From: an uncultured Nitrososphaerota archaeon
GTDB taxonomy: Archaea; Thermoproteota; Nitrososphaeria; Nitrososphaerales; Nitrosopumilaceae
Reading direction: 5' to 3'
Assembly (NCBI GenBank): GCA_963824385.1
Contig: CAWGPD010000003.1
Location: 32,001 to 96,000 of the forward strand
Length of the DNA: 64,000 bases
Positions 39,001 to 42,000 of the stretch are shown here, in pieces. Made by a program: the position numbers. Positions within the stretch are counted from its first letter, which is position 1; each line of letters starts with the position of its first letter.

Positions 39001-42000
39001 AATGTTATAGAGTATATATAAAGTGCATATATATCCACGAAAATGCCTCAAACAAAACCTATTGTTAGTATAGAAAATGTTGTGGCTTCAGCTTCTGTTG
39101 ATCAAAAAATTGATCTTAATATTATAACTCAAACATTTCCTGATGTTGAATATCATCCTGAACAATTTCCTGGTTTAGTGTTTAGAATAAAGTCTCCAAA
39201 AACTGCAACATTGATCTTCAGTTCTGGAAAAATGGTTTGTACTGGAGCAAAATCTGAAGAACAATCAATCGCTGCAGTACGAACTGTTGTTCAAAAATTA
39301 AGAAAAGGTGGAATTAAGATAAAAAAAGATGCTGTAATTACAATCCAGAATATGGTTGCCTCTGCTAATCTTGGTGGCAAGATACATTTGGAACAAGCTG
39401 CTCGGAGTCTTCCAAGAAGCATGTATGAACCAGAGCAATTTCCTGGTTTAATACACAGAATGATTGATCCTAAAACTGTAATACTACTATTTGCTTCTGG
39501 CAAACTTGTATGTACTGGTGCAAAAAAAGAATCAGATGTTTACAGATCAGTACATAATCTGCACACGCTTTTAGAAGAAAAAGAACTAATGATTTACAAT
39601 ATTTAATTTAGAAAATCTGTTAGATTGACTTCATCTGTTTTTTAATTCTATTCAAAGTTTGTTCATCAAGAATTTTCTCAGCATGCAAAGCATTGGAAAT
39701 TGCAAGTATGTCTGTAATCTCATACATCTTTACTTTCTCTTTTTCCAAGTTTTCCCTTGCCCCTTCAAGCCTATTGACTATGACAAATGCAGAATCCACC
39801 ATTATTTTGGCATCTTTTAAGGCTCTAATGGCATTAAGTAATGAATGACCCGTCGTTCCAACATCATCTACTAGAACTACTTTTGATCCCTCTAGTATCT
39901 TTCCCTCTATGAGACTACCGGTACCATAGTCCTTTGGTTTTTGCCTGATGTAAATTAGAGGCTTTACAGTTTCTATCGCTAATGCAGATGCTATTACAAG
40001 CCCTGACGTTGGAACTGACGCTATGTAATCAAAATTGTCTAAACCTATTTTCTCTGAAATCAAGTTTTGAAGAGATTTTATCATCTTTCTAAATTGATGT
40101 GGAAAACTTGGTACTAGTCTAAGATCTATATAATATGCGCTTTCTTTTCCACTAGAAAGCTTGAAATTTCCAAATTTGATTGCACCACTTTCTTGTAAAA
40201 ATATCGCAAATTCTTTGACAAAATCCACAGCAAAATTTACCGAACTAGATTTATTTTAACTGTCCCATCGGTATGGTATGCCTGAAATTTGGCTCAGTTA
40301 TGGACCCACAGACGTAGTTCTTGATGTAAAGGCAGAGAATCTTGAAAAACAGATAATTCCAGGCGGTGTGAACTTGACTGATTCAGAGATTGTATCAAAA
40401 TTGGAATCTCTTGACATGTCAAAACCTACAGAATTTGTAATTATGGAACATTCTAAAAGTATTCAAAAAGTTATCTCAGTTTTGTTGGATATCTGTACAA
40501 AGAAATCTTTTCCAAAACCTAAATTCTTGGTAGATAAATCAAACTTACATTCTCTAAAAAATATCTTCTCTGATCCCACCATATCTATATCTGAATTTAA
40601 TGCATCTCAATTTTCTAATGTAAATCTAATTTTTATTGGTGAGATGGAATTTGATGGATTATTTGGATACAATAACATCTCTACTAAATTATTGCGAAGA
40701 TTTGGTAAAGACAACATGCTTGAAGCATATGAAAAAAGAGAAGGAAATCTTCCACTTCCTGGATATGAGTTAAAAACTATGGATGTTGCAAAAAAATTTA
40801 CTGATGGATTTGAAATATCTGCCATTGAGATAGTAGCAAATCAAACGGGGGTAGTTGACATCGCAACTGGCCATCCATCATCTACTTCTTTGCTCTCAAC
40901 ATCGCTATCATCCATTGCAATACATCAGACTGAAAAACACAGAGTGGCAATTGTCAGCACTGGCAAAGAGGCAAGCAATGAAACATTGAGCAGATCTATA
41001 TCTACCATCTGGAATTGCTCAAATGCTATAAGGGAAGAAGGATTGGTAATTCTTCTTGCAGAGTGTAAACACGGATTGGGTTCTGAGGCAATTCAGCAGT
41101 ATGTAGATGGCAGAATGAGTTTAGATCGATTAAAGAATCCTTCCAAGTACATAGACGGAATGGATGATCTTTTATTTCTAACAGAAATACATAAAAAATT
41201 TGGGATTGGCATTGTATCAATTCTTCCACATCTTTTCACAAAGGATAAACTTGGCATGATTCCATTTACTGGAGCAAAACAAGCCATTGATTATGTTCTT
41301 AAAACATATGGTGAACGACAAAAAGTTGTAATTGTTTCTGATGGTTCACATGTACTACTTAGGTAAAAATGGAAAATGGTAAAGGCGCACAAAGAAATGC
41401 AAGTGCAATAACTAATGCAAACATTCTTTTTCTTTTTTTAGATAATGGCGAAATGTCATCTAATGGTTTTACATCTTGACTTCTCATACTTAACACCAAA
41501 ACAAATAATGCCATTATGTAATATCCTGTAGAAGCTAGAATTCCTATACTTGCATATGTTAGAATTCTATGCCATTTCACACCAAAAGTTGCTCTAGCTA
41601 CGTGACCACCATCAAGTTGCCATGCTGGCAAAAGATTAAGAAATGTTATGAGAAATCCAAACCAAGCCGCTAACAAAACTGGTGACATTACAAGTTCTTG
41701 ATTGGGAACATGTTTTCCAACAAGAGAAATTGTTGCATCCATTAGAATGCTAGAATGTAATTCCATGAGACCAGATTTTTCTAAAAGTTCGTGGGCTTGT
41801 GAACTTGGTACCATTGGAGATATGTATGCCCCATATGTGGAAACAATTATTGCTACAATAAGGCCTGCTATAGGACCTGAGATCCCGATATCAAAAAGTA
41901 TGTTTCTATTTGCAATTAACCCACGAGACATTATGAGAGCTCCAAAAGTTGGGATGAATCCAAATACTGGAATTCCTGGGATGAAATAAGGCCAGCTGAT

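Follow-up and report, generated by a model that had tools for sequence, protein, structure and literature searches.

A LarA-fold pseudoenzyme of LarA homolog group 12 retained almost throughout the ammonia-oxidising archaea and their kin

Gene content and gene order at the locus

The window, a stretch of 64,000 nucleotides from an uncultured archaeon of the Nitrosopumilaceae (contig CAWGPD010000003.1, positions 32,001 to 96,000), encodes a 362-residue pseudoenzyme predicted to have the fold of the lactate racemase LarA, together with the neighbours listed in Table 1. Its near relatives go under the labels Nitrosotalea or Nitrosopumilaceae, and the names given to their products are 'transcriptional regulator' or 'hypothetical'.

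Table 1. Genes and features at the pseudoenzyme locus, in window coordinates.
Feature	Position	Strand	Basis or remark
CADD/PqqC-like protein	37847-38557	+	TIGR04305 154 bits, cut-off 200
tbp, TATA-box-binding protein	39043..39606	+	upstream, past pyrE
pyrE, orotate phosphoribosyltransferase, head-to-head neighbour	39620..40228	-	TIGR00336 145 bits, cut-off 106.8
49-base gap between the divergent starts of pyrE and the pseudoenzyme gene	40229..40277	.	A/T box at 40250-40259
LarA-fold pseudoenzyme, 362 aa (LarA homolog group 12)	40278..41366	+	ORF, profile, model, listing in PMC7583248 Dataset S2
N-terminal beta-hairpin, residues 1-22	40278..40343	+	top conservation within the pseudoenzyme; model strands E3-8, E11-16
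D126-G-L-F-G turn replacing the catalytic H174 motif	40653..40667	+	52-ortholog alignment: D 48, N 3, H 1
C-terminal LarA_C-like domain, residues 216-362	40923..41363	+	PF21113 E 0.0015, below cut-off
M50 peptidase	41359..42294	-	PF02163; tail to tail with the pseudoenzyme gene, overlaps its stop
Ard1-type N-terminal acetyltransferase	42517..43017	+	SSO0209 E 1e-41

The gap between the two divergent starts is probably a shared two-way promoter, and the motif GATTTATTTT was found in all 16 upstream regions compared. A sigma-70 promoter scan, the model of which is ill-suited to archaea, returned nothing. The RNA data covered four runs with shares of 0.05-0.10, three of which were compared as contigs; one 196-base piece of one run maps within the pseudoenzyme gene, which is no demonstration of expression. 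The head-to-head neighbour, described in the first-pass annotation only as 'PyrE-like', is a true PyrE by its family score and is the sole match above the TIGR00336 cut-off in the whole genome.

Several observations concern the other genes of the region. The frame of the M50 peptidase (41359-42437, minus strand) stays open for about 48 codons 5' of the first ATG, up to a CTG near 42437; a close homolog has a methionine aligned with that codon, and a CTG start is probable. The CADD/PqqC-like protein is shorter than its 260-aa homolog at locus L001. A 73-aa ORF (43055-43276, plus strand) codes for a two-helix membrane protein also found near the pseudoenzyme locus in several lineages; it had no Pfam or NCBIfam match at the thresholds used and presumably resembles DPM2-like proteins. 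Further downstream (47044-48717, plus strand), the N-terminal half of a transketolase is joined to ribulose-phosphate 3-epimerase.

The head-to-head arrangement with pyrE was present in all 72 close loci with enough flanking sequence (80 taken) and in 58 of 69 diverse loci (70 taken), so the earlier statement that it is invariable holds among close relatives and fails in 11 of the 69. When these 11 loci were rechecked by tblastn, ard1 was still downstream in 10. The acetyltransferase gene ard1 lies downstream in 67 of 68 close and 27 of 35 diverse loci, and it is the most constant neighbour of the pseudoenzyme gene across the phylum, more so than pyrE. It also persists in four of the five genomes tested from families f70 and f73, where the pseudoenzyme gene was not found, which indicates that the pseudoenzyme is not an obligatory Ard1 subunit. 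Complex prediction for the pseudoenzyme with Ard1 scored 0.00 in two runs whose controls did not fold, and it counts neither for nor against such a complex. A conserved housekeeping neighbourhood need not imply a shared function.

Relationship to LarA and loss of the active site

A profile built from 52 pseudoenzyme orthologs matched the malate racemase Mar2 at E 9.5e-23 and LarA (2YJG) at E 1.7e-15 over positions 1-370. For the window protein alone, the best curated family was NF052593 (malate racemase, Mar2/LarAH6), to which it scored 48.1 bits against a cut-off of 500; Lar_N had no match in the genome under study. The predicted structure (pLDDT 94.6) gave Foldseek TM scores of 0.73-0.79 when compared with LarA chains and of 0.55-0.56 for Mar2, and VIA-align paired 359 of the 362 residues with LarA (Z 35.9, rmsd 3.3; Z 32-36 for 5HUQ, 2YJG and 9EIA). 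The first five rows of the VIA-align ranking belong to the LarA family, and the next has Z 6.7; a search of the ESM Atlas returned the protein's own clusters first and LarA clusters next. These results bear out the full two-domain LarA fold proposed in the first-pass annotation, at the level of a predicted model, and show that homology to LarA runs end to end. Four longer orthologs (P0137, P0145, P0149 and P0151; 440-579 aa) were considered as fusions and rejected, their extra length being low-complexity insertions after residue 30 and inside the N-domain, with the motifs intact. No fused forms of 705-2010 aa were seen among 8000 candidates, which is weak evidence.

The family is not new. By its motifs and gene context the window protein is a member of LarA homolog group 12 (LarAH12), defined by Desguin et al. 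in 2020 from five thaumarchaeal proteins (NKOR_01295, Nmar_0290, NSED_01400, CENSYa_1687 and Ngar_c34640; PMC7583248, Dataset S2). It shares with these listed members MPEIWLxYG, D/N-G/P-L at positions 174-176 and T at 184 (motifs compared by eye). The neighbours listed for the group in Table S1, a RimI-type acetyltransferase (5/5), PyrE (5/5), an M50 protease (4/5) and a PqqC-like protein (3/5), all have counterparts within 2.5 kb in the window. The lost residues were tabulated in the same paper. According to its Table 1, LarAH12 of Nitrososphaera gargensis, refolded and supplied with cofactor, was inactive in seven assays, malate racemisation included; the sequence listed for the assayed protein has 18 extra residues before the conserved MPEIW start. 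Its authors considered that group 12 probably does not use the cofactor and doubted its homology to LarA. The family had been taken as undescribed after a check limited to a 2024 survey, the main text of which does not contain 'Nitroso' (PMC11770544). With family and lost residues already in print, the headline is not a discovery. To the five genomes of the 2020 set, the present work adds homology to LarA over the full length, occurrence throughout the order, persistence in genomes without larBCE and the intact Bathyarchaeia orthologs. No literature on the function of the pseudoenzyme or on a link to Bathyarchaeia was found, subscription papers and preprint supplements lying outside reach.

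LarA relatives short of catalytic residues have a precedent in the single-histidine LarA homologs, which lack one histidine only and one of which was solved with the cofactor (PMC12611868). Groups 13 and 16 of PMC7583248 are likewise listed without catalytic residues, but they are bacterial and differ in sequence and gene context. The LarA described as confined to sediment clades (PMC8397731) is, by that range, not the pseudoenzyme gene.

Following the roles assigned in PMC7583248, the catalytic residues D72, H108, H174 and K298 of LarA are replaced in the window protein by a gap, L90, D126 and S242, and the cofactor-binding residues R75, K184 and H200 by H58, T136 and Y151. The EPHFFAG motif of LarA becomes FDGLFG, with D126 at the H174 position, and compared with LarA (5HUQ, 2YJG, 9EIA), Y294 and Q295 are missing as well. 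Among 23 Nitrososphaerales rows aligned to canonical LarA, H108, H174 and K184 are kept in none, H200 and R75 in one each, and K298 in five. The best-conserved histidine column is occupied in 21 of 52 orthologs. Both earlier claims, loss of the catalytic and nickel-pincer residues and the lack of any well-conserved histidine, are upheld by these counts. Compared with Mar2/LarAH6, its closest profile and family match, the window protein is about 55 residues shorter and has D296-D297 at the His-Lys signature. This signature (358/359) marks malate racemases, with a His/Gln plus Lys variant, in the 2024 survey (PMC11770544).

Conservation is strongest in the N-terminal hairpin, with E3 and G9 in 52 of 52 orthologs, W5, Y8, E20 and N21 in 51 and E/D12 in 50. 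Mean column conservation is 0.62 in the hairpin, 0.28 in residues 31-116, which contain the D72/R75/H108 loops, 0.38 in residues 117-215 and 0.47 in the C-domain; columns conserved at 80% number 9 of 30, 0 of 86 and 20 of 147 in the hairpin, the D72/R75/H108 stretch and the C-domain, respectively. Conserved features of the C-domain are T236-L237, W245-N246, AECxxGxG, Y291, E/D296, P317, Y/F320 and K349, of which E/D296 occupies the position of the specificity histidine of malate racemases. The median dN/dS of the gene is 0.088 (18 pairs), compared with 0.085 for pyrE, 0.047 for tbp and 0.057 for ard1. The gene is under purifying selection, with the constraint located away from the cofactor site.

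That selection bears on the suggestion that the gene is a functionless relic, kept for a 5' end that carries the promoter shared with pyrE. The short intergenic gap and the long branches of the degenerate forms would fit such a relic, but the dN/dS value largely refutes it, a full-length gene is present in all but one of the 102 near-complete genomes, and it is retained where pyrE has moved away; we regard the idea as barely credible. A DNA-binding transcription regulator acting at the shared pyrE promoter is suggested by the names in the source databases, by the short head-to-head gap and by the nearby tbp. With 359 of 362 residues aligned to LarA, however, there is no room for a separate DNA-binding domain, no Pfam or NCBIfam DNA-binding match was found, the pI is below 7 in 48 of 52 orthologs, and pyrE is not linked in 11 of the 69 diverse loci or, among Bathyarchaeia, in 69 of 71, which makes a regulator highly improbable.

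Distribution and the genes of nickel-pincer nucleotide synthesis

The pseudoenzyme gene was found in 139 of 151 Nitrososphaerales genomes, including 101 of 102 that are at least 90% complete, and in 147 of 161 genomes of the class; these tallies, like those given below for LarC, TIGR00300 and Lar_N, include two unpublished genomes (G108 and G487), on which alone no claim is based. Presence throughout the order, as stated earlier, is borne out. Within the class, the gene was not found in families f70 (0/8) and f73 (0/6), where a search for a diverged copy beside ard1 gave as its best match a short piece (E 0.0003) at the edge of one locus, so that a very diverged copy may have escaped detection. 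Across the phylum, the ortholog profile matched in 180 of 301 genomes, canonical LarA counted in. In the search of the order, second matches in a genome were fragments of one gene, in keeping with the claim of a single copy; in the search of the class, two of the 161 genomes (G491 and G523) gave two matches each, both full-length in G491.

LarC is present in 111 of 151 Nitrososphaerales genomes and was not found in families f10 (0/24) and f19 (0/6), although 23 of the 24 f10 genomes and four of the six f19 genomes keep the pseudoenzyme gene. Neither of the known clients, Lar_N and TIGR00300, was found in the 24 genomes of f10, and no LarB or LarE scored above the cut-off in the three f10 genomes tested, two of which are single-contig. 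The pseudoenzyme gene therefore is not accompanied by larB, larC and larE in f10, subject to the caveat of draft genomes. Missing LarC is an imperfect marker in drafts, as in G164, G389 and G019, which have canonical or intact LarA and in which LarC was likewise not found. The retention of the gene where LarC is not found is better founded than when first noted, and so is the description of the protein as a cofactor-independent LarA derivative universal in the order. Very probably, the pseudoenzyme is a cofactor-free non-racemase.

The first-pass annotation had presented the protein as 'the missing LarA', and a non-covalent binder of the nickel-pincer nucleotide or its precursor, acting as carrier, store or unusual enzyme, would fill that place. 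The genome under study has larB, larC and larE, canonical Lar_N was found in none of 23 genomes of its family, and most genomes with the pseudoenzyme also have LarC (111 of 151 in the order). Against this, the gene is kept in f10 without LarC or known clients, the loops that would bind the cofactor are the least conserved part of the protein, and LarC accompanies 4 of 13 degenerate copies as against 4 of 5 intact copies in outgroup genomes. Moreover, larBCE is explained by TIGR00300, named in NCBIfam 'ornithine cyclodeaminase, nickel-pincer nucleotide-dependent', which 101 of the order's 151 genomes encode, including 23 of 23 in the family of the studied archaeon, and which disappears with LarC in f10 while the pseudoenzyme stays. 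This cyclodeaminase is a likelier client of larBCE, of which the pseudoenzyme is not a plausible one, and a nickel-pincer binder is very unlikely. The match between TIGR00300 and LarC is imperfect: f2, f6, f8 and f13 have LarC but no TIGR00300, a Lar_N protein taking its place in f6 (2/2) and f13 (2/4), and f19 has TIGR00300 in all six genomes without LarC.

Several peculiarities of these genes were recorded. In f19 (e.g. G019:C12:331852, L184), a Lar_N protein occurs in three of six genomes and LarC in none, and no LarB or LarE exceeded the cut-off in G019; the family thus has cofactor clients for which the synthesis genes were not found. In 11 of 16 larC loci of Nitrososphaerales, and in none of five outside the order, the malate dehydrogenase gene mdh lies within or beside larB-larC-larE (larB< mdh< larC> larE>; C4:587965-591800 in the studied genome, L151 and L269; also L183 and L270-L289), where it may be a relic of a malate racemase link or a cofactor-related dehydrogenase. 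The TIGR00300 gene of the studied genome (C1:24131-25337) is in two frames, whereas the family's other 23 genomes have it uninterrupted. A split is also seen in the window's RLI gene (44110-45893), the final 74 aa of which are identical to an intact homolog, and both splits are likely assembly indels. Most LarC matches in f7 cover the C-terminal half (profile positions 235-374), with the N-terminal half seen in G080 only. In f14, 13 of 15 genomes gave a Lar_N match, the frames being 607-699 aa long, and locus L178 (865-2826, minus strand) encodes a 654-aa fusion of a cytidylyltransferase (PF02348) with an intact-looking LarA.

Intact orthologs and a possible binding role

Of twenty loci sampled in further families of the phylum, two encode canonical LarA and 18 a protein whose N-terminus is related to that of the pseudoenzyme, five of these being intact and 13 degenerate; ard1 lies downstream in 14 of these 18 and pyrE head-to-head in six. 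Two of the five intact orthologs pass the malate racemase cut-off of 500 bits (504.7 and 504) and three fall just below it (475-493). With one of these intact orthologs as the query, 80 loci were retrieved, of which 79 bear the label Bathyarchaeia. All 77 near-full-length relatives keep D72, R75, H108, H174, K184, H200, Q295 and K298 as well as the His-Lys malate signature, in place of which the window protein has D296-D297; being the best matches to an intact query, these 77 say nothing about how frequent intact copies are among Bathyarchaeia. Around these intact copies, ard1 follows downstream in 71 of 72 loci, tbp precedes the gene in 32 of 61, and pyrE is present in 2 of 71. Many Bathyarchaeia carry an intact ortholog of malate-racemase type at the matching locus, upstream of ard1, and the family extends past Nitrososphaerales to these intact enzymes.

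In quick trees, the Nitrososphaerales rows, with seven short relatives among them, were separated from the grouped intact and canonical rows (SH-aLRT 100), and in another tree the intact and degenerate forms lay together across a branch from four canonical LarA rows (SH-aLRT 99); no bacterial malate racemase was among the rows. The supports that bear on one or several losses were 16 and 66, and repeated independent decay of the enzyme is neither shown nor excluded by these sequences.

Common to live and dead orthologs are an acidic residue at position 3 with W5 (52/52 and 51/52 in the dead forms; D3 and W5 together in 76 of 77 intact ones), an acidic residue at position 12 and P317/Y320, whereas canonical LarA rows have K/N at position 3 and V/K/E at position 5. 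The hairpin positions should face outward, judging from strand alternation and the polar residue 5 of canonical LarA. The simplest reading of the shared residues is that a binding surface, for a partner or for self-assembly, may be older than the loss of catalysis.

We favour, with moderate confidence, the explanation that the pseudoenzyme descends from an archaeal malate racemase of the LarAH6 type, is catalytically dead and free of the nickel-pincer nucleotide, and is kept for a non-catalytic binding job. The ancestor would have lost catalysis and use of the nickel-pincer nucleotide while retaining the fold, and the gene would have been kept because a second, non-catalytic job outlived the enzyme. 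This job would be to bind a protein, whether a partner or further copies of the pseudoenzyme, by means of the acidic, tryptophan-bearing hairpin face (E3, W5, E12, D16 and E20), joined by C-domain positions such as P317/Y320; these positions recur in live and dead orthologs but not in the canonical LarA sequences aligned. The explanation is supported by the kept fold, the lost cofactor and catalytic residues, the unconstrained cofactor loops, the dN/dS of 0.088, the retention of the gene where cofactor synthesis genes were not found, the intact malate-racemase-type orthologs at the matching Bathyarchaeia locus and the published negative assays.

The main rival, which we consider rather unlikely, places the function in a re-purposed cleft: the two-domain clamp would bind either a metal or a small molecule of cationic or aromatic character, and the protein would be a sensor or a new cofactor-free enzyme. 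It is consistent with conserved D126 (48/52), E296 (50/52, Asp in the other two), F129 (50/52), W245 (47/52), N246 (45/52) and Y291 (50/52), and with a charge opposite to that of the parent, which binds carboxylates. Turns of the form D-P-x-x-G are common, and D-G-L-E serves as a capping box of helices, so D126 and E296 may be structural, and the rival is weakened because both acids fit these roles. The half of the cleft formed by the N-domain shows no constraint, and Asp at 174 also occurs in all three of the unrelated group 13 proteins compared (PMC7583248).

Starting from the favoured protein-binding explanation, a more specific history is conceivable, though we hold it only tentatively. 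An ancestral malate racemase of the Thermoproteota, encoded beside ard1, would have moonlighted through its acidic-Trp hairpin; the enzyme would persist in some Bathyarchaeia, and Nitrososphaerales with several other lineages would have kept the second job only, now as a core adaptor or sensor of ammonia-oxidising archaea. If this is true, one locus displays a living series from a moonlighting nickel enzyme to an indispensable pseudoenzyme.

New here are the order-wide retention of the pseudoenzyme, the finding that it does not depend on larBCE, the probable real client of those genes and the intact ancestor type. Why these archaea have larBCE but no LarA is better answered by the nickel-pincer ornithine cyclodeaminase. 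The intact Bathyarchaeial ortholog provides a live control that singles out a few shared surface residues and turns the role of the protein into a testable question. Databases misname the pseudoenzyme 'transcriptional regulator' or 'lactate racemase'; its gene belongs to the core set of the ammonia-oxidising archaea, nearly all of which keep it, as do their kin.
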